DNA of 64,000 bases from a virus (taxonomy: Duplodnaviria; Caudoviricetes). Under the pieces are notes generated by a model. It was given only the letters and a program-made list of their open reading frames with translations, was not told the DNA's origin and did no database searches. Shown here in pieces: positions 1-44,362 of this stretch. The DNA lies in IMG/VR virus record IMGVR_UViG_2751185860_000001, positions 12,733 through 76,732 of that record. One strand, written 5' to 3'. The stretch's first letter is position 1. Every line of letters begins with the position of its first letter. The position numbers were made by a program, and so were the translations under genes.

Positions 1-45
1 AGAGTGAGGTCTTTTTTGTTTAAATCACTTCCAAAGGAATCCCCG

Positions 46-366
46 ATGGCATCTGGATCAGATAAGTCTGTGAAAGGGACACCGCCTAATGCAGGAGCAG
101 GGCGTGTGAAAGGTGTTCCCAATAAGACAACGCGTATACTTAAAGAGGCTGTGATTAAGGCTGCAGAGCAGGCTGGCAACAAATATGGCAATGAAGGGCT
201 GATCTCTTATCTTGAACGCCAGGCTGTAAAATGCCCCGCTGCTTATTTAGCGTTGTTGGGAAAGATCTTGCCTTTGCAGGTTACCGGTGAAAATGATGAA
301 GCCATCAAGATGATTACACGTGTTGAGATTGTAGCACCTGTTATCAAGGACAAAGATGCTGTTTAA
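46..366 (+). CDS. Terminase small subunit (putative)
   Basis: ATG at 46 after AAAGGA; GRVKGVPNK motif typical of small terminases; directly upstream of terL. Confidence 0.7.
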   Translation: MASGSDKSVKGTPPNAGAGRVKGVPNKTTRILKEAVIKAAEQAGNKYGNEGLISYLERQAVKCPAAYLALLGKILPLQVTGENDEAIKMITRVEIVAPVIKDKDAV

Positions 367-377
367 GGGTAATTGAG

Positions 378-1703
378 ATGGCTACAGCTCAAGTTGTGAT
401 CATCGAGAAATTAATCCCCTTGTTTCAAGGAGCTGCTGATGTGCGTGCTGCGTGGGGAGGGCGAGGATCAGGAAAGACAAGGTCCTTTGCCTTAATGGCG
501 GCCTTAAAGGGCTATGAATATGGTATGGGTGGGATATCAGGGATTATCCTTTGTGCTCGCCAGTTTCAAAATTCGCTTGCTGAGAGTTCATTGCAAGAGA
601 TTAAACGAGCGATTGAGACTTATGATTTTTTAAAGGATTATTACAACGTTGGAGAGTCGTCCATTAAGTCGAAAGATGGACGTATATCTTTTCAGTTTTC
701 GGGGCTAGATCGCAATATTGCGAGCATTAAGTCGATGGGACGTATTTTGCTTTGTTGGGTTGATGAAGCTGAACCTGTGACAGAAACGGCTTGGCAAACA
801 CTGATACCGACATTGCGGGAAGAAGGAGAGGGCTGGCGTGCAGAGCTTTGGGTGACGTGGAATCCGTTGCGTGAGAATGCACCTGTTGAAAGACGCTTTC
901 GTTTTACAAAGGACGAAAACATTAAAGGAGTAGAAGTTAACTGGTCTGATAATCCTTTGTTTCCCCAAAAGCTGCAAAGAGTACGTCTTGATGATCTTCA
1001 AAACCGTCCTGAGAGCTATAAGCATATTTGGGAGGGTGATTATCTTAAAGCTGTGCAAGGGGCTTATTTTCAAAAGGAGATGTTAGCAGCAGAGCAAGAG
1101 GGGCGCATAGGGCATGTTGCACGTGATCCTTTAATGCCCATTCGTGCTTTTTGGGATATTGGGGGCACTGGAGCTAAAGCTGACGCAACGGCTATATGGA
1201 TTGCACAGTTTGTGGGAAGAGAGATCAGGGTGCTTGATTATTATGAAGCACAAGGTCAACCCTTATCGGAGCATATAGGATGGTTGCGTCATAATGGTTA
1301 TGACAAGGCAGTGATGGTGCTTCCTCATGATGGGGCGACAAGAGACCGTGTTTATAATGTGAGCTTTGAGAGTGCTTTAAATGAGGCTGGTTTTGACACA
1401 CAGGTTGTGCCCAATCAAGGAGCAGGGGCTGTTAAGATGCGCATTGAAGCGGTGCGTCGTATTTTACCTTGTGTTTGGTTTCATGAAGAAACAACGGTTG
1501 CTGGCCGTAAGGCGTTAAATTGGTATCACGAAAAATGGGATGAAAAGCGCGCCATTGGTTTGGGTGCTGAACATGACTGGGCAAGTCATGGAGCCGATGC
1601 CTTTGGTTTGATGTGCACTGTTTATGAAGCACCACGTACTCCATCAAAACCAGAGCGTTATAGCGCGACAGAAAGAGAAACGGCATCATGGATGGCATTT
1701 TAG
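378..1703 (+). CDS. terL: Terminase large subunit (PBSX-like)
   Basis: Walker A GGRGSGKT, Walker B WVDEAE, nuclease motifs WDIG and SHGADAF. Confidence 0.95.
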   Translation: MATAQVVIIEKLIPLFQGAADVRAAWGGRGSGKTRSFALMAALKGYEYGMGGISGIILCARQFQNSLAESSLQEIKRAIETYDFLKDYYNVGESSIKSKDGRISFQFSGLDRNIASIKSMGRILLCWVDEAEPVTETAWQTLIPTLREEGEGWRAELWVTWNPLRENAPVERRFRFTKDENIKGVEVNWSDNPLFPQKLQRVRLDDLQNRPESYKHIWEGDYLKAVQGAYFQKEMLAAEQEGRIGHVARDPLMPIRAFWDIGGTGAKADATAIWIAQFVGREIRVLDYYEAQGQPLSEHIGWLRHNGYDKAVMVLPHDGATRDRVYNVSFESALNEAGFDTQVVPNQGAGAVKMRIEAVRRILPCVWFHEETTVAGRKALNWYHEKWDEKRAIGLGAEHDWASHGADAFGLMCTVYEAPRTPSKPERYSATERETASWMAF

Positions 1704-3730
1704 AAAACGATGTACAAAAGACGACAAGTCTTGATGATGATGCGCTTTATAGACGTCTTAAGTCTTGGTATGCAGAAGATATAGAGCATGCCAATGAATG
1801 GCGTGAGCAAGCGCGTGAAGACTTTGACTTTTATAATGGACGTCAATGGGCAGAAGAAGATTTAGCTGTTTTAAAGGCACAGCGGCGCCCTGTGATGACG
1901 TTTAACCGTATTGCTCCTTTGGTGAATGCCATTGTTGGAGCAGAGCGTAACAATAAACGGGAAGTGCAGTTTCAACCAAGACAAGTTGGTGCAGCGATAT
2001 CCAATGAATTACTCACCGGAGCAGCAGAATGGTTTCGTGATGAAGCTGAAGCTGAATATGCCGATTCCGATGCCTTTCAAGATATGGTCATTTGCGGTAT
2101 GGGGTGGACAGATACACGGCTTGATTATGAAGAAAACCCTGAAGGTAAACCCACAGTAAGACGCTTAGATCCACTCAAGATGGTGTGGGATGTGAATGCT
2201 GTAAGGCCTAATCTGGTTGATGCACAGCGTATGTGGTATGTTGATCGCAAGCCCATTGAGGATGCAAAAAGCTTGTTTCCCAATGTGGCCAGTGAAGATC
2301 TGAATGCTGATTGGGCTGTCGATAACACAACCGATCTTGAAGATTATCATGTTTCCCTTGATGCTTATAGTGATGACAATAATAGGATAGATGCCGTTTC
2401 AAGGAAACGCTATGTCACGCTTGTTGAGTGTCGTTGGTTTGAACATGAGACCTATTACAAAGCACCTGATCTTCAAACAGGACAGATGCGTGATTATAGT
2501 GCCCAAGAGTTTGAACAACTGCAAATGCTTGTGCCGCAAATCCAAGGAGCGAGCTTTCATAAAAAGGTGGTTAAGCGTGCTTTTTTAGGGCGTCGTCTTT
2601 TAGGCAAGCCTGACAGACCATTAGCGCCTGATGGGCAACTTGGATGGGAGTGCATTACAGGCACGTTGGATAAGCTTAAAAACCAGTTTTATGGCATTGT
2701 GAGGCCGGCGAAAGACCCACAAAAATGGTCGAATAAATATTTTAGTCAGGTGATGTATATCCTCAATAGCCAGGCTAAAGGTGGGATTATGGCTGAACGA
2801 GGTGCTTTTGATGATGAGCGCCAGGCCGTGGAGAGCTGGGCAAAGGCTGATACAATCACATGGCTTAAAAGTGGTGCTTTAACTCGTGGAATGATACAGT
2901 CTAAACCACGTGCAGAGTTTCCTAATGGTTTCTTTCAGCTGTTTAATGAGGCCTGTGAGGCGCTTACACATGTGACAGGTTTATCTGCTGAGTTTATAGG
3001 AACAAGGGAGGTTAATCAGGCGAATGTGTTGGAGAATACACGTCGCCAGTCAACACTCAATTTGCTTGCAGGTTTATTTGATAATTTAAAGCTGTATCGG
3101 TGCCGACAAGGAAAGATCATTCTTTATCTGATTCAAACCTATCTTTCCGATGGTCGTTTGGTGCGCATTTCTGGACCAGAGAAGGCTGAGTATGTACCCT
3201 TAACGCGTGAGGCTGTCACCACCCTTGAGTATGACATTATCGTTGATGATTCACCAACCAGTCCGAATGAGAAAGAAAGAACCTTTGCAGCGGTTACTCA
3301 GATGTTGCCGTTGCTCGGGAATTTCTTAACGCCTGATATGATCCCCGATCTTTTGAAACTCTCGCCATTGCCAGCAACTCTTGTAGCCAGTTTAACGGCT
3401 AAAGCCCAGCAAGCGCAAATGCAACAGCAACAACAGCAGATGATGATGCAAAACCAAGGGCCACAATTAAGCCCCGAGCAACAAGCAAAAGTTGCAGCCA
3501 TTCAACAAGAAACTCAGGCGAAAGGCGTGCTCAATCAACTGGATGCCCAAAGCAAACAAATGGCACTGCAGCAAAAGAATATTGAGCTTTTCTTAAAGCA
3601 AGAACAAGCGCGTATGCAGCTTGAACAGCAAAGAGCAAGAAATGAGATAACCCAGCGAGAGATGCAGATCAGAGCATTACAAATAGAGCTTGAAGGTTAT
3701 CGAGCAGCAACCATCAGAGGCAAAACTTAA
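1688..3730 (+). CDS. Portal protein, P22-like, Q-rich C-terminus
   Basis: 680 aa after terL; DFYNGRQW and NRIAPLVNAIVG N-terminal motifs; coiled-coil/polyQ tail. Confidence 0.85.
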   Translation: MDGILENDVQKTTSLDDDALYRRLKSWYAEDIEHANEWREQAREDFDFYNGRQWAEEDLAVLKAQRRPVMTFNRIAPLVNAIVGAERNNKREVQFQPRQVGAAISNELLTGAAEWFRDEAEAEYADSDAFQDMVICGMGWTDTRLDYEENPEGKPTVRRLDPLKMVWDVNAVRPNLVDAQRMWYVDRKPIEDAKSLFPNVASEDLNADWAVDNTTDLEDYHVSLDAYSDDNNRIDAVSRKRYVTLVECRWFEHETYYKAPDLQTGQMRDYSAQEFEQLQMLVPQIQGASFHKKVVKRAFLGRRLLGKPDRPLAPDGQLGWECITGTLDKLKNQFYGIVRPAKDPQKWSNKYFSQVMYILNSQAKGGIMAERGAFDDERQAVESWAKADTITWLKSGALTRGMIQSKPRAEFPNGFFQLFNEACEALTHVTGLSAEFIGTREVNQANVLENTRRQSTLNLLAGLFDNLKLYRCRQGKIILYLIQTYLSDGRLVRISGPEKAEYVPLTREAVTTLEYDIIVDDSPTSPNEKERTFAAVTQMLPLLGNFLTPDMIPDLLKLSPLPATLVASLTAKAQQAQMQQQQQQMMMQNQGPQLSPEQQAKVAAIQQETQAKGVLNQLDAQSKQMALQQKNIELFLKQEQARMQLEQQRARNEITQREMQIRALQIELEGYRAATIRGKT

Positions 3731-3748
3731 ACGAAAAGGAACGAAACA

Positions 3749-4723
3749 ATGGAAGAAAAATTAACCCCTGAAGAACAAGCCCTTTATGATGAACAATTTG
3801 CAAGCAATTCTCCTGTTGGCGATTATTCTATTGAAAGCGTGCAAGTGGATGAACCTGAGCAAGATGTTAAAACAGATGGAGCAAATGACACAGGTGGGCT
3901 AGATGAGGCATCTGAGCAGCCAGGAGAAGAGGTTTCTCAAGAGCCGTTAAATGATGATGCTGGTGAGCAAGAGTCTGAAAAGCCTGATTACGGTGTTGTA
4001 GAGCAAGAGCGCCAAGCGCGTCAAAAAGCGGAGCAAGATGCTGCTGAGGCTCGTGAGCTTGCACTGGAGATGGCACAAAAATATGCCACCATGCAGCAAG
4101 AAATTACGCGCCGTTCTGATGAAAATGTTCCTTCTTTGGAAAAGGATCCCAAGGCGCATATGGCATGGCTTAGTCAGAAGGTGCAAGAACAGCAAAGATT
4201 GCTTCATGAGTTTTCATCGATAAGAGAGCAACAAGAGCGCGTCAATCAAGAGCACTATGAGCGTCAGCAATTAGGGGATTATTTTGAAGCAGCCAAGGCA
4301 CAGGTTCAAGATAAATACCCTGACTTAGATAGCATGATGGATTATCTTTATGAGTATGCAGACAATGATTTGAAAGAAAATGCCAATCTGTATCCGCAAC
4401 TTAATGACCCTGCGGTAAGGCAAGAACAACTTGGCACTCAATTGCGTGATATATGTAAGCAGTGTCAAAGGGCAGGTATTAACCCTGTGGAGTTTCTTGT
4501 GCAAAAAGCAAAGAAGTCTGGATACTCTGGCCCACAGATGAGAGATGATGTGAGTGCTCTTCAAGAACGCACAACAGCAGCACGTACATTGACAGCCCGT
4601 GGGGGGCAAGCTCCAACAGGGGGTGTTGATGTAAAAACACTTTCTTCCATGCCGGAAGCTGAGTTTGCAGCATGGGTTGAGAAAAATCCTGGGAAATTTG
4701 AACAAATTATGAGCGGGATGTGA
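3749..4723 (+). CDS. Scaffolding protein (putative)
   Basis: Acidic N-terminus and coiled coil; lies between portal and capsid. Confidence 0.7.
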   Translation: MEEKLTPEEQALYDEQFASNSPVGDYSIESVQVDEPEQDVKTDGANDTGGLDEASEQPGEEVSQEPLNDDAGEQESEKPDYGVVEQERQARQKAEQDAAEARELALEMAQKYATMQQEITRRSDENVPSLEKDPKAHMAWLSQKVQEQQRLLHEFSSIREQQERVNQEHYERQQLGDYFEAAKAQVQDKYPDLDSMMDYLYEYADNDLKENANLYPQLNDPAVRQEQLGTQLRDICKQCQRAGINPVEFLVQKAKKSGYSGPQMRDDVSALQERTTAARTLTARGGQAPTGGVDVKTLSSMPEAEFAAWVEKNPGKFEQIMSGM

Positions 4724-4829
4724 AGGACATGCATCTTAGCTCATCAGAGATAACCAAGTGATGGTGCTTGGTTATGCCGTACTTTTTGCGGCAATTTTTT
4801 AAACAATACGAAGAAAGGCATTTTAAAAA

Positions 4830-5966
4830 ATGGCGACAACACAAATAACGATCAATGACCCATTAGCGGTTAGCGCTTGGGCTAAGATGCTCAATACAGA
4901 GACCTCAAAAGCGTTGTCTATTGCACCGCTTATGGGGACAAACAAAAATAGTGTCATCCAAGTTCAGGATGAATCAGGAAAATCAGCGGGTGATTCAATC
5001 ACCATGGGATTGCGTGTTCAGCTTATGGGTGATGGTGTTAGCGAGGGCCAAACGCTGGAAGGCAATGAGGAAGCACTTCAGTTTATGAGTGATAAGATAC
5101 GCATTAATGAGCTTTCTCATGCTGTACGTGTTAAAAATGAAGGATCGATTGATCAGCAACGTGTTTTGTTTAACTTGCGTAATGAAGCAAAGGATGGACT
5201 TGTTGATTGGTATGCAGACCGTTTAAGCATGATGTTCTTTATTCAGGCTGCAGGCTATACAGCACCATGGATGAAGTTTGAAGGGCATACCGTAACGCTT
5301 AAGCCTGTGCATTATGGTTTTAATGAACCTTTAGAGCCAAGCAGTAAGCGTGTTATTCGCCCAGGTCAGAAAAAAACGGATGAGACGCTTGCGAAAGAGG
5401 ATGTGTTTAATCTCAAATTGATTGATCAAGCTGTGCAGCGTGCAAAACTGGCTAATCCTAAGATTAGACCGGTGCGTATCAATGGAGACAGTGTCTATGT
5501 GATGTATCTTCACCCAATACAGGTGACCCAATTGCGCACCAATACAGATCCTGGTCAGTGGCTTGACATTACCAAGGCAGTTTTTAATGGAAGCCGCTCT
5601 AAAAACCCCATTTTTGATGGATCATTAGGGATGTATAATGGTGTTGTTTTGCGTGAATCTGAACATGTGCCCAATGGTGTTGATTCAAAGACCAAAGAGC
5701 CTGTTTTGTCTGTTCGGCGTGCTGTTTTGCTTGGTGCACAAAGTATCATCATGGCTTATGGGCGTTTTAATGGTGGAGCGAAAGGCAATGGAGCAACACG
5801 CTATAAATTAGTGGAAGAGATGTTTGATTATGAACGTGAGTTTGGTGTGGCTGCTAAGACTCTTATTGGCATGAAAAAGCCACGCTACGCTTTACCCTAT
5901 TCTAATCAGGGAGCACAAGACTTTGGCACCATTGTCATTCCATCTTTTGCTGAAGATAACGTATAA
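4830..5966 (+). CDS. Major capsid protein (N4-gp56/DUF4043-like)
   Basis: 378 aa; GDSITMGLR, LEGNEEAL, GSLGMYNGVVLRE motifs; position. Confidence 0.85.
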   Translation: MATTQITINDPLAVSAWAKMLNTETSKALSIAPLMGTNKNSVIQVQDESGKSAGDSITMGLRVQLMGDGVSEGQTLEGNEEALQFMSDKIRINELSHAVRVKNEGSIDQQRVLFNLRNEAKDGLVDWYADRLSMMFFIQAAGYTAPWMKFEGHTVTLKPVHYGFNEPLEPSSKRVIRPGQKKTDETLAKEDVFNLKLIDQAVQRAKLANPKIRPVRINGDSVYVMYLHPIQVTQLRTNTDPGQWLDITKAVFNGSRSKNPIFDGSLGMYNGVVLRESEHVPNGVDSKTKEPVLSVRRAVLLGAQSIIMAYGRFNGGAKGNGATRYKLVEEMFDYEREFGVAAKTLIGMKKPRYALPYSNQGAQDFGTIVIPSFAEDNV

Positions 5967-5994
5967 ACATCAATGAAATGAGTAGGATTTAATT

Positions 5995-6426
5995 ATGACA
6001 AAACAACGTCTTATGACACAGACATTTGTTGATTTTACACAAACAACGGATGAGGGCATGCCACCTGTTTTGCAGGGGCGTGATATTCATACACAACAAG
6101 TGAGCTTTTTTCGCTCACGTATACAAGCAAGTGACACAGGGCTTACCACATCGGTTGGTGTTTTACCACGGGGTGCTTTGATTAAAAGCATTACTGTTTA
6201 TACACTGACAGATTTTGAAGGGGCCACTGCAACGATTGGCAAAAAACCAGGGGACAGTGATTATGGGACACAAGTGCTTGAAGCGGAAGGTGTTAAAGAG
6301 GTTGAATTGCCTTTAAAAGCACGCAGCGTTCCCCTTCAGTTTGAAAATACGATTTATGTTACACGAGACAAGAAAAGCTCCAAAGGGGATGCTGAGATCA
6401 TTGTTGAGTTTTACACAAATCGTTAA
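5995..6426 (+). CDS. Virion protein, possible capsid decoration
   Basis: 143 aa beta-rich ORF after capsid, followed by terminator. Confidence 0.5.
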   Translation: MTKQRLMTQTFVDFTQTTDEGMPPVLQGRDIHTQQVSFFRSRIQASDTGLTTSVGVLPRGALIKSITVYTLTDFEGATATIGKKPGDSDYGTQVLEAEGVKEVELPLKARSVPLQFENTIYVTRDKKSSKGDAEIIVEFYTNR

Positions 6427-6430
6427 AAGA

Positions 6431-6464
6431 AGGGGGCGTTTGTTCCTTACGCTCCCTCCTTTTT
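6431..6464 (+). terminator. Rho-independent terminator after capsid genes
   Basis: AGGGGGCGT...ACGCTCCCT stem followed by T-run. Confidence 0.6.
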
Positions 6465-6466
6465 AA

Positions 6467-9062: not shown

Positions 9063-9063
9063 C

Positions 9064-16266: not shown

Positions 16267-16279
16267 AGGTTTTTTAAAG

Positions 16280-16540
16280 ATGATCAATAATCCCTCGGCA
16301 ATTGATGAGATTGCCGACACAGGGCAGATTCGTGTTCTTTTTTATGCAAGTCATAAATTAGTTCATGCGCCATTAAATAAGGTTCTTGATAAGGTCAAAG
16401 ACGATATTCAGCATGATCTTTTGAATGTTTTTACAGCTTACCAAAAAGAGACAGAGCAACGCATTGAGACTTTGCAAGAAGCCGTTGATGAATTGCGTTT
16501 GCAACTTGTCAATCTAACACATCCCGAAGATACAAATTAA
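16280..16540 (+). CDS. Hypothetical phage protein
   Basis: 86 aa ORF in operon. Confidence 0.6.
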   Translation: MINNPSAIDEIADTGQIRVLFYASHKLVHAPLNKVLDKVKDDIQHDLLNVFTAYQKETEQRIETLQEAVDELRLQLVNLTHPEDTN

Positions 16541-16553
16541 GGAATTCAAAGCG

Positions 16554-18850
16554 ATGCCTATTCCCTATCACACACACAAGTTTGAAATTGAGCCAGCGAC
16601 AAATAAGGAAGTCAAAGAAGGTATTTTAGACAATAAAGTTGTTGCACCCTCTTCATTGGGGAGTGCAGCGGCTTATTCTATGGGTTATTTTGCGACTGCT
16701 GCTCAAGGAAAGAAAGCTGATGAGGCCGTTGCAAAAAGAGATGTTGGGGCACTTGCTTATAAAGATACGGTTACAGTTAATGATATAAGCACAAGTGGGG
16801 ATCCTAGTGAGAATACAGTTCTATCGGGTACTGGCTGGATAAAGCTATCGCCTTTGGGAATTGGCGATATGAGTGCTGCTATTTATGATCCTTCTAATGT
16901 GATGTCAGATGCCTTTTCTATGGAGAATATGGTTGAAGGTGATACAAAGAAGATTTTGACTGCAGAAGAAAGAGTAAAGCTACAATGGATAAGTTCTGAG
17001 TGCCCTACAATAGAAAAATGGAAGAAGGCAGATGAGGATATCAATTATCCTATATCTCCTGCTGATCTTAAAGATACTATCACTCATTTTACATTATCAA
17101 AATCTCTTGCGATGTCAAAATCAGTTTATGATCCAGATAAAATAGCAAAGGATGTTTTTGCTATGGATCATATGAAAGAGGGGGAGAAACACCTTATCTT
17201 AACGCCTCAAGAACGTATCCAGATTACGAAGATTAATCAAATTGAAGAGGTTGCACAGCAAGCACAAACGACAGCTCAATGTGGGGTCAATGCAGCAGGT
17301 GAGGCTAAAGAGACTGCAGATAAAGCACAAGTGGCCGCAGAGAGTGCAAAAGAAACGGCGGCGGTTGCAAAAGAGGCGGCAGTAGCTGCACAAACGACAG
17401 CTAATAGTGCAAAGAAAGCCGCTGATACTGCACAAAGCACTGCCAATAAAGCACAAGAAACTGTAGATAAGGTGCAAAGCACTGCAGAGAGTGCAAAGGA
17501 AACGGCAGCAGATGCTTTAAGCACAGCAAAGGATGCGCAAAGCACTGCTGATAAAGCACAAGTGGCTGTAGAGAGTGCAAAAGAAGCAGCGACAAGTGCA
17601 AAAACAGTAGCTGATAAGGCGCAAGAAACTGCCGTGGATGCAAAAGAGACTGCAGACAAAGCACAAAAAGCAGTTGATCTCATTCACCCTCTTGAAAAGC
17701 AAGATTGGATTGATGGCATCAAAGCAGAAAATGCACTGATATCACCGGCTCATCTTGTTGCTTCTATCAAAGCAAATAGTGGCGGCAGTAGTGGGGGCAG
17801 CAGCAATAGTGTGGGTGTAGGTGTTAGCAAACCTGTTGAGATTTTCATGACGGAAAGTGGGGAAATTGCATGGCCAGAAGGGACAACTGGAGACACCGAG
17901 CTTGAAATATGGGCTTGGGGTGGTGGTAATGCTGGTGATGATAGTGGTCGTCATGGTGGTAATGGTGGGTGTTGTACTTATGTGAGAACAAGGAAAAAGT
18001 TTCTTGGCAACAGTAAAGTAACTATCGGCAAGGGTGGAAAAACAGCTGAGAATAGCGGTTTCGCTGGGGAAAAAACAAAAGTTGGTCAGTTTATTACAGC
18101 TTCTGGTGGTTCTATCGGATACGATCCTAGTGGTATTCATGGTGCCAGGGGCGATGATGGAGCTGATGCAGAGGATCAAAGTGGTATTGGGGGTGATGGC
18201 AAGAATGGTGAAGTTGGTAGGATAGGTGGATTTGGTGGTAATGGGGGAAAGGGGGCAAAAGCGGTAAAAATAGTACTGGAGGGCGTGGGGGCAGTGGTGG
18301 CAGAGGGGGCGATAATTTTTTAAAAAGTGCCGGTAATGGAGGTAAAGGCGGTGATGGTGGGCGTGGCGAGAATGGTGGTAAAGGCGGCGGAGGTGGCGAT
18401 GGTGGAAACAATATATATAACGGTGGCGGTGTTGGAGGTTGGGGTGGTAAAGGAGGAGATGTAGGTGCTGGTTTAGGTGGTGAAGGCGGTTGGGGTGGTA
18501 AAGGAGGCAATAGTATGTGGGGTGGTGGTGGCGGAGGTGGTATTGGAGGAGACGGTGGTGATAGTAACCAAGGAATTGGTGGTAAAGGCGGTTTAGGCGG
18601 ACGTGGTGGAGACAGTATTTATGGCGGTGCAGGTGGAGGGGCAGGGGGTGGCAAAGGTGGAAAAGGCGAGAAAAACGGTAATAATGGTACTAGTGGACTT
18701 GGGGGTCATAGCATGTGGGGTGGTCGTGGTGGACAGGGAAGTATTGGTTACTATGGTGGTGGCGGTGGATATTTTCCCGGAAAAGATGCGACATCTTCAT
18801 CAAGCGGTGCTGGGGGAGATGGTGCTGTATTAATTAAAGTGTATTTATAG
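16554..18850 (+). CDS. Gly-rich tail fibre/adhesin split by a -1 frameshift at about 18245-18255
   Basis: Frame 0 ends at 18323; the -1 frame opens at 18242 and runs Gly-rich to 18850, ending GAVLIKVYL like fibres at 43-45 kb. Confidence 0.8.
17270..17680 (+). repeat. Degenerate 42-bp (14-aa) tandem repeats encoding an Ala-rich coiled-coil stalk
   Basis: Repeated AKETADKAQxAxES units. Confidence 0.85.
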
Positions 18851-18865
18851 AAATGGAATGAAACA

Positions 18866-19531
18866 ATGGCACGAAGGATTAGTAAAGACTGTTTGAATTG
18901 TTTAAAAAAATGGGAAGGCTTGCGATTAAACGCTTATCAAGATGCATCTGGTGTTTGGACCATTGGATATGGTCATACCGGAAAAGCTGGTAAGCCATTT
19001 GTTGTTGAAGGTATGACGATTACCAAGCAAAAAGCTGAAACTATACTTTTAACTGATTTGCAAAAATATGAAGCAGCAGTAGAAAAAGAGGTTTGCGTTG
19101 ATTTAAATGATGAACAGTTTGGGGCTCTGGTTTCATTTTGTTATAATGTTGGTGTAAGTGCTTTTCAACGCTCTACCTTGCTTAAAAAGCTTAATAAAGG
19201 GGATTATGAAGCTGTACCGGCTGAATTACAAAAATGGACAATGGCAGATGGCAAACGTTTGAAAGGTTTAGTTCACCGGCGTGCTGCTGAAGCGGGGTTA
19301 TGGGCAACGAGTGCTTATGTTTCTTCTAATTATCAAGCTGTAGAAGCAAAAGAATCAACAAGTGCTTTTAAAGTAGAAATGTTAGCGCCTGTCATTGGGT
19401 CTTTCTCGGGGCTTGGAGGATTACTTGCTGGCAATGGTCCAGTTCAGTGGGCTTTTGCGGCAATTATGGTTTTAGCAGCTTGTGTTGGTATTACGTTTGT
19501 TGCTCAACGTTTTTGGGAGCAACGGCTGTGA
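18866..19531 (+). CDS. Lysozyme (GH24) endolysin with C-terminal hydrophobic segments
   Basis: EGLRLNAYQD...WTIGYGHT motif. Confidence 0.95.
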   Translation: MARRISKDCLNCLKKWEGLRLNAYQDASGVWTIGYGHTGKAGKPFVVEGMTITKQKAETILLTDLQKYEAAVEKEVCVDLNDEQFGALVSFCYNVGVSAFQRSTLLKKLNKGDYEAVPAELQKWTMADGKRLKGLVHRRAAEAGLWATSAYVSSNYQAVEAKESTSAFKVEMLAPVIGSFSGLGGLLAGNGPVQWAFAAIMVLAACVGITFVAQRFWEQRL

Positions 19532-19755
19532 TTTGGTGGGGAAAGAAATATTTACTGATGGTGGCGGCGACTTTAGCCGCTTTTTTTGTAACTTTAGCTA
19601 AGGTTTTTCGGTTTGGAAAGAAAGTTGAGCAACGCAAACGGACTGAGAAAACTTTAAAAATAGCTATAACACGGTTTGAAGTAGAAGATGAAGTTAACAA
19701 GAAAAGTGATGTGGATATACGCTCTGATCTGTCTGAGTGGGTGCGTAAAGAATGA
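19528..19755 (+). CDS. i-spanin (Rz-like), putative
   Basis: GTG start overlapping lysozyme stop; N-terminal TM then coiled coil; homologous to 53565-53780. Confidence 0.65.
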   Translation: MIWWGKKYLLMVAATLAAFFVTLAKVFRFGKKVEQRKRTEKTLKIAITRFEVEDEVNKKSDVDIRSDLSEWVRKE

Positions 19756-19900
19756 CTATGTTTCTTGCCTAGGATGGATGCCAATTTATTTGGATAGGCA
19801 AGACTACGATGGAATCAGTTCAAACTTAGCACGAGACATTTTAAAGCATAATGAGAACGGAAAACGTTCTTGTGGATGGAAGCCTATTAACACAAGTTAA
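19688..19900 (+). CDS. o-spanin (Rz1-like) lipoprotein, putative
   Basis: Lipobox LSGC; overlaps i-spanin in another frame. Confidence 0.7.
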   Translation: MKLTRKVMWIYALICLSGCVKNDYVSCLGWMPIYLDRQDYDGISSNLARDILKHNENGKRSCGWKPINTS

Positions 19901-20013
19901 AGGTGATTTATAAGGGTAAGTTGCAAAATCCTATTCCCTAACCTGATTATTTTATCCCTAACCTTAAATAAATATCAATAAAATCAATGGGTTATAGGGG
20001 TAAAAAAGGCATA

Positions 20014-20029
20014 TGGTGCCCCCAGAGGG
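20014..20029 (-). other. att core: tRNA-3'-end-like remnant
   Basis: Reverse complement CCCTCTGGGGGCACCA ends in CCA; flanked by repeats CCCTAACCT (19936, 19956) and AAGGTGGTC (20156, 20168); adjacent to integrase. Confidence 0.6.
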
Positions 20030-20191
20030 CGAATCAGTCCTTAGCAAGTAGAATCCAATCACATAAAAATGTGCAAAGACGTGTTGCTGTATATAGCTTT
20101 TTATGATTCAGTAAGAAAATTAATGATTAAATAAAAAATCTGATATCAAAAATTAAAGGTGGTCAAAAAGGTGGTCGAAAAGGAGGGGTAA

Positions 20192-21349
20192 ATGAGGGCG
20201 ATTCATAGGTTAACAGCATCGTTTGTAAAGACATCTCCTCAGGGTAAGTATTGTGATGGAGCAGGCTTATGGTTAAATGTTCGAAAAGACAATACACGCG
20301 GTTGGTTTTTTCGTTATACATACCGCAATAAACGCCGTGAAATGGGGCTTGGTCCTGTTACAAAAACTTCTTTAAAGGAAGCACGCGAGTTTGCTAAACA
20401 TTATAGTGATATTCTTAAGGGTGGCAACGATCCTATTGTATTTCGAGAACAAAGCATTTTAAAACAGCAAAGCAATGTTTTTCAAGAAATTGCTCAAGCG
20501 GCTTTTGAAAGTAAAAAAGCTGAGTTAAAAAATGAAGGAAAAAATGGTCGTTGGTTTTCTCCACTAGAGTTACACGTTATTCCACATATAGGTAACCTTC
20601 CTGTAGAAAAATTAACAGCGAATATTATTCGTAATGTTCTTGCTCCACTTTGGCATAAAAAAGGAGATACAGCGCGAAAAGTACTTAACCGTATCAATAT
20701 TTGCTTAAAATATGCCGCCGCTCTTGGCTTGGATGTTGATTTACAAGCTTGTATGAAAGCACGCGCTCTTTTAGGAAAGTCACGCGCTATATCAACAAAT
20801 ATTCCTGCTATGCCATGGCGGGAAGTTCCGGCTTTTTATCAAAACTTAAATGATGACCTCCTTTCAAATTTAGCGCTAAAATTGCTAATTTTGACTGGAG
20901 TACGGTCATATCCCTTGCGATATTTGCGTCTTGAGCAAATTGATAAAAATGTATGGACGATACCAAAAGAAAATATGAAGGGTATTGTAGGCAAAGTTTC
21001 AGACTTTCGCGTACCGCTAAGTAATGAAGCTTTGAGAGTCATTGAAAAAGCTCTTTCTTTTGAAAAAAATGGTTTCTTATTTTCTGGTCTTAAAGGCACC
21101 CCAATTTCTGATGCAAGCATGGCAAAACATATGAAATTTTGTGGTTTAAAGTATCGTCCTCACGGTTTTCGCTCAAGCTTACGAGATTGGATAGCAGAAA
21201 CAACATCAACACCATTTGAGATTGCCGAAACTGTCCTTGCTCATTCAGTTGGTAGTTCAGTGACAAAAGCTTACATGCGAACAGATTTTTTAGAACAACG
21301 ACATGCTCTCTTAGAACAGTGGGCTACATTTATAACAGGGACGACTTGA
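20192..21349 (+). CDS. int: Tyrosine integrase, P4-like
   Basis: Arm-binding N-terminus (YCDGAGLWL, RREMGLG); catalytic R, HGFR, H and Y motifs. Confidence 0.95.
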   Translation: MRAIHRLTASFVKTSPQGKYCDGAGLWLNVRKDNTRGWFFRYTYRNKRREMGLGPVTKTSLKEAREFAKHYSDILKGGNDPIVFREQSILKQQSNVFQEIAQAAFESKKAELKNEGKNGRWFSPLELHVIPHIGNLPVEKLTANIIRNVLAPLWHKKGDTARKVLNRINICLKYAAALGLDVDLQACMKARALLGKSRAISTNIPAMPWREVPAFYQNLNDDLLSNLALKLLILTGVRSYPLRYLRLEQIDKNVWTIPKENMKGIVGKVSDFRVPLSNEALRVIEKALSFEKNGFLFSGLKGTPISDASMAKHMKFCGLKYRPHGFRSSLRDWIAETTSTPFEIAETVLAHSVGSSVTKAYMRTDFLEQRHALLEQWATFITGTT

Positions 21350-21375
21350 CAAAATCACGGAAGCATTTATATACG
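21346..21375 (+). promoter_or_regulatory. sigma70-type promoter for the antisense/antirepressor unit
   Basis: TTGACA at 21346 overlapping int stop, then TATATA; conserved in the copy near 54782. Confidence 0.7.
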
Positions 21376-21377
21376 CA

Positions 21378-21440
21378 AATCAGGTGCTTGAAAAACACCT
21401 TAAGCAAACAGCGGATAGATTGTCGACACAATCTTTTTTC
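21378..21440 (+). ncRNA. C4/CI-like antisense RNA (putative), copy 1
   Basis: Hairpins AGGTG/CACCT and GATTGT/ACAATC; TGAAAAACAC (21389-21398) is complementary to 21555-21564. Confidence 0.65.
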
Positions 21441-21587
21441 TGCACATTAAAGGCTTTGACTCGTTGTATACGTGTGGCGTATAGTGATCCTGTCGGGTGT
21501 GGTTATGCGATACAATACCCTTTATGGGGAAAGCATAACGACGGACTGTTTGCCGTGTTTTTCAGCGCCCGGCGCTCTTTTTTTTGA
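21384..21587 (+). CDS. Small Icd/Ash-like ORF (start uncertain)
   Basis: QYPLWGKHNDGL conserved with 54531-54794; lies between antisense RNA and antirepressor. Confidence 0.4.
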   Translation: MLEKHLKQTADRLSTQSFFCTLKALTRCIRVAYSDPVGCGYAIQYPLWGKHNDGLFAVFFSARRSFF

Positions 21588-22142
21588 GTGTCAATGAAAA
21601 ACGTTTGTTACAAACAGGAGTTCGTTATGAACAATCTTATAGAGATTAAAAAACAAGTGATTGATCAGGAAACTGTTCAGACAGTCAACGCACGTGAGTT
21701 GTGTGCTTTTTTAGAGGTAGGAAAAGATTTTTCTACTTGGATTACAAACCGCATTAATCAGTATGAATTTGTTGAAAATCAAGACTTTGTTTGCTCCCCT
21801 ATTTTGGGGAGCAAAGGCAGAGGTGGTCACAATCGCAAAGAATACCATCTCACCTTAGACATGGCGAAAGAGTTATCCATGGTTGAACGTAATGATAAAG
21901 GACGTCAAGCCCGTCGATATTTTATTGAATGTGAAAAAAAATTAAACAGTCAATTACAATTTGATCGTGAACTGTTTTCTCGTGATTTATTAAAATCACC
22001 TTCAGGTATTGGTGAAATTTTAGAAATAATTATGACACGTTTATTAGATGCAAATGGTTTTGAAAAAGAGCTTGAACATTACAAATCAGTTACAACAGAA
22101 GCCAAGCGTGTTTTAGAAAGCCCTGTTGCAAAGGCTGCTTAA
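21588..22142 (+). CDS. Antirepressor, AntA/AntB N-domain (start probably the later ATG near 21627)
   Basis: VNARELCAFL...DMAKELSMVERN...ARRYFIECE. Confidence 0.9.
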   Translation: MSMKNVCYKQEFVMNNLIEIKKQVIDQETVQTVNARELCAFLEVGKDFSTWITNRINQYEFVENQDFVCSPILGSKGRGGHNRKEYHLTLDMAKELSMVERNDKGRQARRYFIECEKKLNSQLQFDRELFSRDLLKSPSGIGEILEIIMTRLLDANGFEKELEHYKSVTTEAKRVLESPVAKAA

Positions 22143-22208
22143 TTACAAAGAATATAACCATACCTTTCCCCTGTAAAATGGGGAGAGGTTAAGTTTTATA
22201 TTTGTATG
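21975..22208 (+). repeat. 234-bp inverted repeat, left copy
   Basis: Base-by-base reverse complement of 53942-54175 as read by eye. Confidence 0.95.
22162..22197 (+). terminator. Terminator hairpin inside the inverted repeat
   Basis: CCTTTCCCC...GGGGAGAGG stem followed by TAAGTTTT. Confidence 0.65.
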
Positions 22209-22217
22209 TTTAGCAAT

Positions 22218-22454
22218 TTACTTACATTGCTGAATAGAGAAACATCCGTATTTGTAGGGCACAAACTCATAACTTTGTTTTTCTTCCCATTGCGTAAATA
22301 AAAATAAGTACTTTTGAAAATCTATACTTGAAAGGCGTCCTCCGAATTCTTGAAGGAAAGCTAACAATAGTTTTTGCCGTTTGAATAGAATCCTACTTTT
22401 TACTGTTTTCATAGTATTATTTCTGTATCTGATTGATATTTTGCTTAGAACCAA
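22218..22454 (-). pseudogene. Truncated gene fragment resembling the N-terminus of DUF488-associated proteins
   Basis: FKRQKLLL...DFQKYLFLF...FVPYKYGCFS, then an abrupt stop 10 bp from the repeat edge; family assignment from memory. Confidence 0.45.
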
Positions 22455-22634
22455 CCCAATGAAATTATATCACAAAAAAGTATTTATGCACTGATAAAAT
22501 CAACAATAATTGTTTATTTTCAATAATTTATGCTGTTTTTTCTTTGGAAAAATGGACTGTGTTGTGCTATAGTAAAAGCAGCTTTTCATATCCGTATTTC
22601 ATTTCAATTATTTTCCTTAGAAAAGATATCAAAC

Positions 22635-23081
22635 ATGCTTAATAAAGTAATTTTAATCGGCTATCTGGGTGCCGATCCCGACAGCAGAATAATGCCATCT
22701 GGAGTAGAAGTAGCAAATTTTCGTATGGGCACTTCTCAAAGTTATACAGATAAAACAACCTCTCAAAGAATAAATAAAACAGAATGGCATTCTATTGTGA
22801 TTTTTAATCCGCATCTTGCAAAGATTGCGCTTCAGTATCTCAACAAAGGTTCCAAAGTTTACATTGAAGGTCAATTACAAACACGTAAATGGCAAGATAA
22901 AGATGGGCAAACACGCTACACAACAGAAATTGTCTTACCGCAATATAAAGGTGAGTTAAAAATCCTTGATAGTGCTCAAAAGTCTGATCCTGACATGGCT
23001 ACTCAAGAGCAAACAATGGCATGGGAGAGTGGTGGTCGAGAGTCTTTAGAAACGACTTTGAATGACAGAATCCCATTTTAA
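22635..23081 (+). CDS. ssb: Single-stranded DNA-binding protein
   Basis: MLNKVILIGYLG...TEWH...VYIEGQLQTRKW; acidic tail ending IPF. Confidence 0.95.
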   Translation: MLNKVILIGYLGADPDSRIMPSGVEVANFRMGTSQSYTDKTTSQRINKTEWHSIVIFNPHLAKIALQYLNKGSKVYIEGQLQTRKWQDKDGQTRYTTEIVLPQYKGELKILDSAQKSDPDMATQEQTMAWESGGRESLETTLNDRIPF

Positions 23082-23097
23082 TCAGGAAAGTTAATTT

Positions 23098-23628
23098 ATG
23101 AAGAAACGCAAAAAAAGGGGAAGACCTAGAATAGAAGGTCAAATAAGAAAACCCAATGGACGTATCTCGTGTGCAAAAACGCCTGATAAGTCTTCATATC
23201 AACAGACACTTGAAATGCGTGCCAAGCGTTATGGAGCGAGTATTCAAGATGCGAAAAACCCACTTATGGGCACTTATGTAGGGCGGTTATATTTATTGGA
23301 AAAAAAGATTAATCAAGATCAGTACGATGCATCACAGCAGTATATTCAAGTGCGAAACAATTATCGGTGTGCGAAAGGATTACCAGGGGCTATTTATGAT
23401 GAAATGCCAACATCTTCTGATGATAGCGAAAGGAACAAGTGGGTTGAAGTAACAACTGATCGCTATAAAGCGATGCAAGAGGTTATCAGAGAAACACAGA
23501 GACTGCATCGTCGGTATAATCTTCATGATGCATTAGAGCATCTGGTTATTGAAGACCAACAACTGCCACATCTTGTCAACTCTCTACGCATGGCTCTGAA
23601 TGCTCTTCACAAATATTTTGATCCTTAA
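23098..23628 (+). CDS. Hypothetical DNA-binding protein, candidate late-gene regulator
   Basis: Basic KRGRPR N-terminus; occupies the Q position upstream of the late promoter. Confidence 0.45.
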   Translation: MKKRKKRGRPRIEGQIRKPNGRISCAKTPDKSSYQQTLEMRAKRYGASIQDAKNPLMGTYVGRLYLLEKKINQDQYDASQQYIQVRNNYRCAKGLPGAIYDEMPTSSDDSERNKWVEVTTDRYKAMQEVIRETQRLHRRYNLHDALEHLVIEDQQLPHLVNSLRMALNALHKYFDP

Positions 23629-23636
23629 TAAAAGGA

Positions 23637-23683
23637 TTGACATCAGATTTAAAATTAATAAAATGTGTATATATTTACACATT
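23637..23683 (+). promoter_or_regulatory. hicAB promoter with palindromic operator
   Basis: TTGACA-16-TAAAAT overlapped by AATGTGTA-N6-TACACATT (23662-23683). Confidence 0.7.
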
Positions 23684-23696
23684 ATGAGTATATAAA

Positions 23697-23897
23697 ATGG
23701 AACAAGATAGCCGAAAAATCATTGCAAAATTAAAGTGTGACGGCTTTGAACTTGTTAAAGTAAAAGGTTCTCATCATAAATTTAAAAAAAATGGTCAAGT
23801 AATTATCGTTCCCCATCCTAAAAAAGACTTGCCAATTGGTACAGCGCGTTCCATTGCACAACAAGCGGGCTGGTTAAAAAAAGGAAAAGAAGAATGA
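23697..23897 (+). CDS. hicA: HicA toxin
   Basis: KGSHHKF...VPHPKKDLPIGT. Confidence 0.95.
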   Translation: MEQDSRKIIAKLKCDGFELVKVKGSHHKFKKNGQVIIVPHPKKDLPIGTARSIAQQAGWLKKGKEE

Positions 23898-24289
23898 AAA
23901 GATTTTTTGCTCTTGTTCACAAGGATGAAAATTCTGCTTTTGGTGTTCAGTTTCCTGATTTTAAAGGACTATTTTCTGCTGCCGATCAGGAAGAAAATCT
24001 TATTGCTAATGCAACAGAAGCTCTTCAACTATATTGCGAAGAAATGGATAAATTGCCAACTCCTTTAAAATTTGAAGAAGTGATACAGAAAGAAACTGTC
24101 AAAATAGCTTTGTCGGAAGGAGCTTTTTTAATACAAGTTCCATTTGTTGAAAATGATTCAGAAGTGGTGCGTATGAATATATCAATTGAACGAGGGCTCT
24201 TGCGTGCAATTGATGATTGTGCACAAGAAAGAGGCTTAACACGATCTGCCTTTTTAGCAACGGCAGCACGTCATGAGCTTAATATTTGA
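23894..24289 (+). CDS. hicB: HicB antitoxin
   Basis: FGVQFPDF N-domain; C-terminal ribbon-helix-helix (RGLTRSAFL). Confidence 0.95.
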   Translation: MKRFFALVHKDENSAFGVQFPDFKGLFSAADQEENLIANATEALQLYCEEMDKLPTPLKFEEVIQKETVKIALSEGAFLIQVPFVENDSEVVRMNISIERGLLRAIDDCAQERGLTRSAFLATAARHELNI

Positions 24290-24401
24290 GTCATCAGATG
24301 TAATGAGAAAATTTACAACTTTTCTTCTACGACCATTTACACTTAACAAATACCATATTTAGTTTGATTGAAATAAAAAATACCAGATTGTGATTTTTTA
24401 G

Positions 24402-24430
24402 TTGACATGGGGATATAAATAGTATTTAAT
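24402..24430 (+). promoter_or_regulatory. Candidate late promoter (pR'-like)
   Basis: TTGACA-17-TTTAAT. Confidence 0.65.
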
Positions 24431-24502
24431 AGCGCTACTGCACGTGTTTTTGTGCGCCCAAAATTACAGAATCATGTAATTTTTTCTTGTTGGTGTTGTT
24501 TT

Positions 24503-24529
24503 AAAAGCCCTGCAAATGCAGGGTTTTTT
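24503..24529 (+). terminator. Terminator tR'-like
   Basis: CCCTGCA-AA-TGCAGGG plus T6. Confidence 0.8.
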
Positions 24530-24578
24530 GATTTAAAAAATCAAATTCAGTCACTCCTATTTTTTTATGATTTACTGG

Positions 24579-24613
24579 CCTCACTCCTCCCCTCCTGAGA
24601 GTGAGGTTTTTTT
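24579..24613 (+). terminator. Second late-leader terminator
   Basis: CCTCACTC...GAGTGAGG plus T7; its 3' half recurs at window positions 1-17. Confidence 0.75.
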
Positions 24614-24642
24614 ATATCTCAGTTTCTCCAAAGGAATAACCC

Positions 24643-25113
24643 ATGGAAAAAGTACAAGTAGTCATCACAAGACCTATGTGTGTTCTTGGTGACAATAAAG
24701 GAATCGTTCGTTTTGAGCCTTCCACAAAAAGTAATCCATTTGTTGAGGTTTCTTATCAAGTTTACTGTCGTCTTAAACGCGCTGGTGCTGCTAAGCTTTA
24801 TCAACAATGGCTATCACAAACCGTCAATGAAAAACCAGAGCTTAATGAACAAGAAGTCTCTGTAGATGTAAACACTCAAGAGGTTACACAGGTCGTTGAA
24901 GAAGTTGAACAAACTGTCGATGAAAAACTAGAGCTTGGTAAGCAAAAAGTTTCTATACAAGAGTCTCATGAGCAAGAGGTCTCTGTAGATGTAGATACGC
25001 AAGATACTGAACAGACTACTGAAGAAGTTGAACAAACACCTATAAAATCTGACAAACAGTCTCCAAAAGCAAAAACTTCTAAATCTTCGACGCGTGCGAC
25101 AAAGAAAGCTTAA
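24643..25113 (+). CDS. Hypothetical phage protein with acidic internal repeat
   Basis: EQEVSVDV.TQ...EEVEQT occurs twice. Confidence 0.7.
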   Translation: MEKVQVVITRPMCVLGDNKGIVRFEPSTKSNPFVEVSYQVYCRLKRAGAAKLYQQWLSQTVNEKPELNEQEVSVDVNTQEVTQVVEEVEQTVDEKLELGKQKVSIQESHEQEVSVDVDTQDTEQTTEEVEQTPIKSDKQSPKAKTSKSSTRATKKA

Positions 25114-25116
25114 ACT

Positions 25117-33800: not shown

Positions 33801-33835
33801 CCCCTGAATATGAAATCAATAAAGGAATTAAATAT

Positions 33836-34629: not shown

Positions 34630-34642
34630 GAGACATACAAAT

Positions 34643-38478: not shown

Positions 38479-38480
38479 TA

Positions 38481-42912: not shown

Positions 42913-42925
42913 CAGGAGTAATATC

Positions 42926-44361: not shown

Positions 44362-44362
44362 T

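Follow-up and report, generated by a model that had tools for sequence, protein, structure and literature searches.

Tandem Bartonella prophages of one lambdoid-style family, with virion cassettes probably exchanged between a shared late leader and shared spanins

Why do two late operons that encode different virions share a leader and a spanin pair in one stretch of Bartonella DNA? The window, i.e. the whole stretch of 64,000 nucleotides analysed here, is G000:C2:586447-650446 of its own genome, and negative positions denote the sequence upstream of it. We consider it about 75% probable that two members of a single lambdoid-style Bartonella phage family lie in the window as tandem prophages at one tRNA-Thr and that their virion cassettes have been exchanged. 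Prophage 1 (P1a) and prophage 2 (P2a) meet at an attachment core that is repeated at window -12831 and at 64389, adjoining the tRNA-Thr.

20014-20027, + strand: att core TGGTGCCCCCAGAG, junction of P1a and P2a

The two cassettes differ in virion type, both known here from genes alone. The first would be a podovirus virion module (933W/Bcep22-like): the capsid's nearest relatives are podoviruses, namely Paracoccus vB_PmaP_KLEP18-1, Stx2-converting phages and Bcep22-like phages. The search of 46-19531 turned up neither a tape measure nor a tube or sheath gene.

46-19531, + strand: podovirus-type late cassette, 933W/Bcep22-like, 19.5 kb
46-366, + strand: first late ORF, probable small terminase (phrog_11043)
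378-1703, + strand: TerL
1688-3730, + strand: portal
4830-5966, + strand: major capsid
9064-10107, + strand: ejection protein
14424-15293, + strand: transglycosylase
15286-18850, + strand: tail fibres
18866-19531, + strand: endolysin (phrog_7) with a C-terminal transmembrane helix

The second would be a myovirus virion module, with sheath, tube, tape measure and baseplate V/W/J-like genes; its sheath has vB_EcoM-type myoviruses as nearest relatives.

24643-53532, + strand: myovirus-type late cassette, lambda-like head and P2-like contractile tail, 29 kb
24643-25113, + strand: 156-aa ORF, function not assigned
25117-27866, + strand: type-ISP-like methyltransferase, three overlapping ORFs
27880-28467, + strand: gpZ-like gene
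from 28727, + strand: TerS
29253-31184, + strand: TerL
31188-35719, + strand: lambda-like head genes
36582-39752, + strand: baseplate genes
39754-45712, + strand: fibres
46016-47476, + strand: sheath
47476-47982, + strand: tube
48378-50419, + strand: tape measure
50425-52348, + strand: gpU/gpD-like genes
52345-53532, + strand: endolysin (phrog_1224) with a C-terminal transmembrane helix

The initial annotation had a podovirus terminase follow the late ATG in one prophage and a myovirus module in the other. This stands for prophage 1, with its probable small terminase, but the myovirus genes do not follow immediately in prophage 2, where the 156-aa ORF and the methyltransferase precede the gpZ-like gene, TerS and TerL. 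The tape measure, one fibre gene and the methyltransferase are each split into several ORFs, and the prophages may be defective.

Ahead of each cassette lies a control region, with ssb, the 176-aa gene and the late leader in common.

22530-23081, + strand: phage ssb, 72% identical in amino acids to the prophage 1 copy (tblastn)
23098-23628, + strand: 176-aa protein, presumed late regulator (phrog_15385)
23894-24289, + strand: HicB antitoxin, occupying the variable slot that separates the 176-aa gene from the late promoter
24329-24642, + strand: late leader of prophage 2, ATACCA repeats just upstream of the -35
24402-24407 and 24425-24430, + strand: late promoter of prophage 2, -35 TTGACA and -10 TTTAAT, 17-nt spacer
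24503-24529 and 24577-24613, + strand: terminators T1 and T2 of prophage 2
24630-24635, + strand: conserved ribosome-binding site of the prophage 2 leader
1-45, + strand: 3' end of the late leader of prophage 1, the remainder upstream at window -270..0
1-10, 11-17 and 33-38, + strand: T2 3' arm, U-run and ribosome-binding site AAAGGA of the prophage 1 leader

The late promoter is near the sigma-70 consensus (-35 perfect, -10 matching at 5/6, spacing 17 nt), and the transcribed leader of about 215 nt carries two intrinsic terminators and ends in the conserved ribosome-binding site. On folding, T1 and T2 form stable hairpins followed by U-runs in the leaders of both prophages: T2 of P1a has -18.2 kcal/mol (z -6.5), and T1 and T2 of prophage 2 have -15.9 and -15.1 kcal/mol, with a U-run after each. 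A terminator scan of 23600-24700 reported none, but the folds plainly show two and are preferred. Across 18 leaders 98.8% of the T1/T2 stem cells pair; pair counting found no compensatory pairs in these stems, the variation being G-U changes only.

Other RNA elements were also sought. An Rfam scan of 20000-25200 gave no match in the leader; elsewhere in that range, 21491-21582 resembles an sRNA-Xcc1-like element at a score under the gathering threshold. RNAalifold on 39 promoter-proximal leaders found no consensus structure over the transcript's first 70 nt, which are conserved, so a put-like or boxB-like element was dropped as unsupported.

A promoter followed by intrinsic terminators upstream of the first late gene is the layout of Q-type control. 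By analogy, late transcription may run as at lambda PR'-tR', a model to which we give a little under even odds. The late promoter would fire and transcripts would halt at T1/T2, unless the 176-aa protein, encoded where Q is in lambda, lets RNA polymerase read through. Conservation of leader and protein would allow a prophage to be acted on by the copy from its neighbour.

Alternatively, the control is promoter activation, which would leave the exchange picture unchanged and which we hold to be rather unlikely. The 176-aa protein would then bind the ATACCA repeats or AT-rich DNA upstream of the -35 via its AT-hook-like KRGRPR, and the hairpins would only damp leaky transcription. The ATAC(C/A)A motif does occur twice, about 29 bp apart, directly upstream of the -35 and conserved across the genus, and both the AT-hook-like N-terminus and the missing conserved RNA structure near the transcript start are compatible with such binding. 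However, a promoter with a perfect -35 and a 5/6 -10 at 17 nt should need no activator, and two successive terminators downstream of a strong promoter, ahead of the first gene, form the classical arrangement for antitermination.

In the antitermination model as in the activation one, the 176-aa protein is the presumed regulator, put forward from its position and basic N-terminus only (KKRGRPR). Its gene is always the last conserved one ahead of the late promoter, and in Rhizobium phage RHph_I3_18 and one metagenome contig the genes for homologues immediately precede terminase genes. The family counts about 480 clusters at 50% identity. A structure predicted from a shallow alignment of Bartonella sequences only was poor (pLDDT 64) and its fold search meaningless; a deep alignment gave a confident, all-helical predicted fold at pLDDT 92.

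Known relatives were looked for by sequence and by fold. Neither the protein nor 72 homologues could be placed in a Pfam family, profile searches of PDB sequences were empty, and Foldseek with the pLDDT 92 model had no match in the PDB. In a wide fold search by VIA-align the best Z was 4.8, with Q21 (6jnx_P) at a Z of 3.6, within noise, and the BFVD search returned uncharacterised phage proteins only. The protein Atlas offers a weak DUF6456 lead only. The protein may, though this is less likely than not, found a new and widespread class of phage late-gene regulators that pass RNA polymerase through leader terminators, one copy of which could switch on prophages of different virion types in multi-prophage Bartonella.

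The sharing extends well beyond this control region. The genes common to both backbones are YqaJ exonuclease, RecT, an AntA/KilAC antirepressor, a DUF1376 replication-type gene, ssb and the 176-aa gene, next to the late control region of about 320 bases. Between P1a and P2b, a myovirus-type prophage elsewhere in the genome, the early region is colinear for >6 kb at 78-97% identity, through exonuclease/RecT, antirepressor, DUF1376, Dam, ssb, the 176-aa gene and the leader. The shared chassis that the initial annotation proposed thus goes beyond ssb and the 176-aa gene. The types carry different integrases, so the backbone is not identical between them; within this genome, the 385-aa enzyme is confined to myovirus-type copies.

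20192-21349, + strand: tyrosine integrase of prophage 2, 385 aa

Could the mobile unit be just a small control cassette of ssb, 176-aa gene and leader that spread into two otherwise unrelated phage lineages? The integrases differ by type and are placed differently relative to att, and colinearity within the window is limited to ssb, the 176-aa gene, the leader and the spanins. However, the P1a/P2b homology adds exonuclease/RecT, antirepressor, DUF1376 and Dam in the same order at up to 97% identity, and P2a has this region too, at 54-64 kb and inverted, the inversion splitting its backbone. The spanins at the far end are also common to both types, and the trend here is already towards sharing of over half of the non-structural genes. 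We regard this alternative as improbable and keep to the exchange of virion cassettes on a common backbone.

At its left border the exchange first appeared as a match of 48 bases. Positions 1-48 and 24598-24645 are co-linear and identical at 33/48 without gaps; AGAGTGAGGT stands at 1-10 and 24598-24607, TCCAAAGGAAT at 30-40 and 24627-24637, and the ATG at 46-48 and 24643-24645, all at equal offsets as first described. Homology to 22.6-24.6 kb continues upstream of position 1 and takes in ssb, the 176-aa gene, the promoter and both terminators, as the initial annotation had expected. Window -270..+49 matches 24329-24646 at 76.8% (blastn, E 5e-45), a late leader of about 320 bases, and -2038..-1052 matches 22604-23620 at 83%, about 1 kb with ssb and the 176-aa gene. 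The slot between these two blocks is non-homologous and holds hicB in prophage 2; HicB presence is unrelated to cassette type. Past the ATGG of the first late gene identity is at background level, so the reported stop at the late ATG is borne out.

Chance or convergence of a generic terminator and ribosome-binding site is refuted as the source of the 48-base likeness, with a negligible probability: identity within it is indeed limited to two blocks of 10-11 nt and the ATG, with 8/20 in the middle, but the likeness reaches over 320 bases and a further 1 kb upstream, and the 1.81-Mb genome contains the 10-mer AGAGTGAGGT at five sites only, each within such a leader.

The right border is the start of the i-spanin, with homology setting in at about 19578 in prophage 1 and about 53603 in prophage 2.

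19558-19900, + strand: spanin pair of prophage 1, i-spanin 19558-19755 and o-spanin 19688-19900
53565-53928, + strand: spanin pair of prophage 2, i-spanin 53565-53780 and o-spanin 53713-53928

Both pairs have the features of two-component Rz/Rz1-type spanins as judged by sequence. The i-spanins belong to phrog_1026, with an N-terminal transmembrane helix in prophage 1 and a hydrophobic N-terminus in prophage 2, the o-spanins have the lipoboxes LSGC and LTGC, respectively, and the genes overlap at 19688-19755 and 53713-53780. The pairs are homologous (19578-19900 vs 53603-53928, 78% identity) and the endolysins unrelated (phrog_7 vs phrog_1224), both as proposed earlier. Each cassette, with its own endolysin, ends at the start of these overlapping genes, and the homology breakpoints fall at gene or signal borders: the ATGG of the first late ORF on the left, the i-spanin start on the right. 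Between P1a and P1b a further breakpoint lies at the 5' edge of the leader, so the exchange is not limited to the ATG.

Among 90 Bartonella genomes surveyed, the same leader or promoter precedes either cassette. The full leader is present in 23 copies in five ruminant-lineage genomes, 7 leading into a podovirus cassette, 13 into a myovirus cassette and 3 decayed; its promoter-proximal part of about 120 nt precedes either cassette in about 25 further genomes. A third cassette type was considered for leaders L043, L045 and L048 and rejected, these being decayed podovirus- or myovirus-type remnants, and contig C1 searched for one has only truncated backbone fragments.

The exchange is supported as a repeated event, since gene trees conflict with cassette type and hybrid leaders exist. 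On the 176-aa gene tree the cassette type requires at least 3 changes, and the AU test rejects a single podovirus clade (p = 6.7e-7). On the spanin tree the myovirus-linked spanins are paraphyletic, those of the P2a type grouping with podovirus-linked rather than other myovirus-linked ones (support 98/97). The hybrid leaders L038 and L039 have a podovirus-type T2 arm followed by a myovirus cassette; L042 and L043 have a myovirus-type spacer followed by a podovirus start. Together with the upstream homology and the P1a/P2b colinearity, the survey supports the original idea of one lineage swapping virion cassettes between leader and spanins.

As to the mechanism, co-resident prophages may swap cassettes by homologous recombination in the conserved flanks, probably aided by the phage's own RecT/exonuclease pair, as RecT and YqaJ are encoded in both backbones. 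RecT-type recombinases are efficient on 78%-identical DNA, and 23-27 nt are reported efficient for Red-beta (PMC3945230). In their last 50 nt the leader types share no exact stretch longer than 11 nt, which is less than this, and therefore crossovers may mostly fall further upstream. Selection would keep only junctions at functional boundaries, i.e. ribosome-binding site/ATG and spanin start.

Bartonella genomes have many prophages, which drive inversions and deletions (PMC6257571). Two virion types on one late switch and a recombination-prone backbone would explain the reshuffling of these prophages. The leader and the gene at 23098 offer a single handle for asking what turns them on, and if the 176-aa protein proves a regulator, a large uncharacterised phage protein family gains a function. 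The joints are so precise, at ribosome-binding site/ATG and spanin start, that the system illustrates the linker model of modular phage evolution cleanly, as a natural case from an alphaproteobacterium pathogenic to animals.

How does this locus compare with known systems? Elsewhere in the genome, at window about 745-763 kb, lies what we take to be a candidate Bartonella gene transfer agent (BaGTA) structural locus. This BaGTA-like cluster is homologous to the whole podovirus cassette, with amino-acid identities of 73% for TerL, 65% for portal, 68% for capsid and 66% for endolysin. The late leader, the 176-aa gene, ssb and spanin homology are all absent near it.

The control region resembles lambda Q/PR'/tR' in its strong, constitutive-looking promoter, its candidate factor encoded immediately upstream and its short terminated leader transcripts, predicted at about 100 and 183 nt; the lambda 6S RNA has 194 nt. 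It has two terminators instead of the one of lambda PR'-tR', and no Q-binding element or pause signal could be identified. Unlike lambda Q, the 176-aa protein lacks a Q-family domain and matched no known fold, the Z to Q21 above being within noise; a distant structural kinship with Q proteins is possible.

Lambdoid phages combine one regulatory/early backbone with podovirus, siphovirus or, rarely, myovirus virion modules (PMC8065619), and RecT/Red-type recombinases carried by phages drive mosaicism (PMC3945230). The Bartonella family differs from them in that the lysis genes close the late operon instead of opening it, the endolysin moves with the virion cassette while the spanins remain with the backbone, the presumed regulator resembles no Q family in sequence, and the host is an alphaproteobacterium rather than an enterobacterium. 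Like lambda, P22, 933W, H19-B and other Stx phages, it has one backbone with differing virion modules, a late operon behind a promoter-plus-terminator leader with a putative regulator gene directly upstream, mosaic joints at gene borders and RecT/Red-type recombinases; the capsid of its podovirus cassette is related to those of Stx2 phages. With colinear early/regulatory genes, breakpoints at borders and incongruent trees, this is lambdoid-style mosaicism, a clear but ordinary modular exchange between related temperate phages that is new for Bartonella.

The initial annotation had described a 48-base co-linear match between the late starts of two Bartonella prophages, the podovirus-type prophage 1 (P1a) and the myovirus-type prophage 2 (P2a). 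The match is confirmed. Window positions 1-48 and 24598-24645 align without gaps at 33/48 identity, with the same blocks and the start codon in register:

1-10 and 24598-24607: AGAGTGAGGT
30-40 and 24627-24637: TCCAAAGGAAT
46 and 24643: ATG of the first late open reading frame (ORF)

The window is G000:C2:586447-650446 in its own genome, so the sequence upstream of position 1 (negative coordinates) is readable. Homology continues there, at 76.8% identity between -270 to +49 and 24329-24646 (blastn E 5e-45) and at 83% between -2038 to -1052 and 22604-23620, while the slot between the two blocks is non-homologous. Directly past ATGG the identity drops to the background level, as had been claimed. 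The 10-mer AGAGTGAGGT has five copies in the 1.81-Mb genome, all inside late leaders. The observation stands because the homology extends upstream and the 10-mer is confined to leaders.

The late leader is a control region of about 320 bases ahead of the first late gene. In prophage 2 it consists of:

24402-24407 and 24425-24430: near-consensus late promoter, -35 TTGACA and -10 TTTAAT with a 17-nt spacer
24503-24529: terminator hairpin T1, -15.9 kcal/mol, then a U-run
24577-24613: terminator hairpin T2, -15.1 kcal/mol, then a U-run
7 nt 5' of the ATG: ribosome-binding site AAAGGA

The folding energies of T1 and T2 in prophage 1 are -14.6 and -18.2 kcal/mol. Over 18 leaders, 98.8% of the stem cells are paired and the stem changes are exclusively of the G-U type. 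Hence, the stems are conserved and covariation proof is absent.

Five ruminant-lineage Bartonella genomes contain 23 full leaders between them, the relatives being, by their names, B. schoenbuchensis, B. bovis and Bartonella sp. WD16.2. Of these leaders, 7 stand ahead of a podovirus cassette, 13 ahead of a myovirus cassette and 3 ahead of a decayed podovirus or myovirus cassette. Conservation of the promoter and of ~45 nt from the transcript start is genus-wide, with 25 further genomes in which they again stand ahead of either cassette. RNAalifold finds no common RNA structure in this conserved transcript start. Ahead of the promoter, hicB is present or missing from its slot irrespective of cassette type. 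On the 49.5-kb contig C1 of the window's own genome, 27128-29861 contain ssb, hicB and a 176-aa gene with a frameshift; homology is lost within the 5' part of the late promoter region, with no virion cassette behind it.

After the prophage 1 leader, the podovirus cassette encodes a 106-aa ORF, TerL, a 680-aa portal, capsid, ejection proteins, a transglycosylase, fibres and a phrog_7 endolysin. Genes for a tape measure, tube or sheath are absent from it. Among cultured phages, the nearest relatives of its capsid are podoviruses, with Stx2 and Bcep22-like phages among them. A cluster on C2 at ~745000-765000 in window numbering (minus strand) is homologous to this cassette over its whole length, with amino-acid identities of 73% (TerL), 65% (portal), 68% (capsid) and 66% (endolysin). 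No leader, ssb, 176-aa gene or spanins accompany this candidate locus of the Bartonella gene transfer agent.

The myovirus cassette opens with a 156-aa ORF of no known function. Next are three overlapping ORFs that together make up a type-ISP-like methyltransferase, then a gpZ-like gene, TerS, TerL and a lambda-like head set, and after these P2-like baseplate, sheath, tube, tape measure and a phrog_1224 endolysin. The sheath has its relatives among vB_EcoM-type myoviruses. The methyltransferase with its specificity portion (25117-27866; domains coupler, N6_Mtase/Eco57I and Type_ISP_C) lies directly 3' of the first late ORF; other myovirus-type copies have lost it in part or in full.

The end of each cassette is marked by the start of an overlapping spanin pair that is homologous between the prophages, matching at 78% identity between 19578-19900 and 53603-53928, with o-spanin lipoboxes LSGC in prophage 1 and LTGC in prophage 2. 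The homologous spanin pairs and unrelated endolysins seen by the initial annotation are both borne out. A hydrophobic C-terminal helix ends both endolysins (18866-19531 and 52345-53532), and a separate holin gene ahead of the spanins is not apparent in either cassette. Glycine-rich fibre proteins of one family, phrog_8139, are present in both (16554-18850 and 42887-45712), so the host-recognition ends may be common to both virion types. In the myovirus cassette there are two diverged tandem copies, 42907-43878 and 44347-45286, of 76% identity.

The att core TGGTGCCCCCAGAG is found at -12831, 20014 (to 20027) and 64389, the last adjoining tRNA-Thr. Hence, prophages 1 (32.8 kb) and 2 (44.4 kb) lie in tandem at one tRNA-Thr site. 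Prophage 1 has a classical order, with integrase, YqaJ exonuclease, RecT and AntA/KilAC leftward, and a beta-solenoid protein, DUF1376, ssb and the 176-aa gene rightward, followed by leader, late genes and spanins. The prophage 2 homologues of the early genes lie at 54-64.4 kb, inverted relative to its own late genes.

The genome holds three further copies, the podovirus-type P1b and the myovirus-type P2b and P2c. P2b keeps the colinear order of prophage 1 at 78-97% identity over >6 kb of early genes, so the "same chassis" of the initial annotation is a fair description except for the integrases, as that of prophage 2 (at 20192) differs from that of prophage 1. P1b, a near-identical podovirus copy, is integrated at another tRNA. 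At each of its ends the core is replaced by the 15-nt TGGTGGGCAATGAGA, beside unchanged phage arms.

Relative to P2b and prophage 1, the 32-kb ssb-to-spanin segment of prophage 2 is inverted against the early genes. It is flanked by two inverted repeat pairs, 21922-22220/53930-54228 (299 nt, 91%) and 21443-21581/54543-54681 (139 nt, 83%). An Rfam sRNA-Xcc1 match at 21491-21582 (plus strand; 46.3 bits, below the gathering score of 53; E 4e-6) lies a short way 5' of the AntA antirepressor gene, and its inverted copy is near 54543-54681. RecT adjoins a YqaJ-type exonuclease in each backbone (62470-63378 and L085:1700-3146).

Incongruent trees and mosaic leaders support the main interpretation, that virion cassettes are exchanged, and repeatedly so, between conserved flanks. 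In the tree of the 176-aa gene the podovirus and myovirus labels are interspersed, requiring at least 3 changes, two of which strongly supported branches make unavoidable, and a single podovirus clade is rejected (AU test, p = 6.7e-7). Spanins of P2a-type myovirus copies cluster with the podovirus-linked ones, apart from other myovirus-linked spanins (98/97 support). Leaders L038 and L039 have a podovirus-type T2 5' arm ahead of a myovirus cassette, and L042 and L043 a myovirus-type spacer ahead of a podovirus start.

P1a and P1b are 99.6% identical from the leader 5' edge (-248) to attR and 88.6% in ssb and the 176-aa gene; this step suggests a recent replacement that has its border at the leader. 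Within the final 50 nt of the leader, no stretch of exact identity exceeds 11 nt. Many crossovers probably took place 5' of that, in the promoter region or in ssb and the 176-aa gene; identical runs there are as long as 22-32 nt. RecT-type recombinases efficiently recombine 78%-identical DNA and drive phage mosaicism (PMC3945230), and the backbone-encoded RecT and YqaJ exonuclease are a plausible engine here.

The presumed late regulator, the 176-aa protein (gene 23098), has a basic N-terminal segment, KKRKKRGRPR, followed by a helical body. A word-based search matches Bartonella hypothetical proteins only, and a profile search of 1.84 billion representatives 478 clusters. Pfam has no family for it or 72 homologues, and a PDB sequence search gives no match. 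Its structure is predicted confidently from a deep alignment (pLDDT 92.3, pTM 0.79); Foldseek finds no solved relative, the best VIA-align Z is 4.8, and BFVD matches are uncharacterised phage proteins only.

The homologue in Rhizobium phage RHph_I3_18 is the last gene ahead of the terminase operon, another on a metagenome contig is immediately 5' of HNH, TerS and TerL, and at other loci it comes after RusA and DnaA_C-like genes. This position, ahead of the terminase and late genes, is that of Q in lambda, which favours antitermination; from genomic context alone, we give this role a probability of roughly 45%. A promoter activator working via the upstream ATACCA repeats is less likely, and the remaining probability falls to some other activity. 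As a regulator, the protein of one prophage might also trans-activate the other, as the initial annotation proposed.

Bartonella prophages are known as heterogeneous rearrangement hotspots, and neither a common late control region nor paired cassettes are described in the literature searched (PMC6257571, PMC6899734, PMC11080155). Lambdoid phages combine one regulatory backbone with podovirus, siphovirus or, rarely, myovirus virion modules (PMC8065619, Stx phages). The Bartonella prophages resemble them in the alternative modules on one backbone and the mosaic joints at gene borders, but differ in that the lysis genes come last in the late operon, the endolysin goes with the cassette and the spanins with the backbone, and no Q family is related to the candidate regulator. 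The Bartonella system is a fresh example of long-known lambdoid-style mosaicism, in which the function of the 176-aa family is the most novel point.
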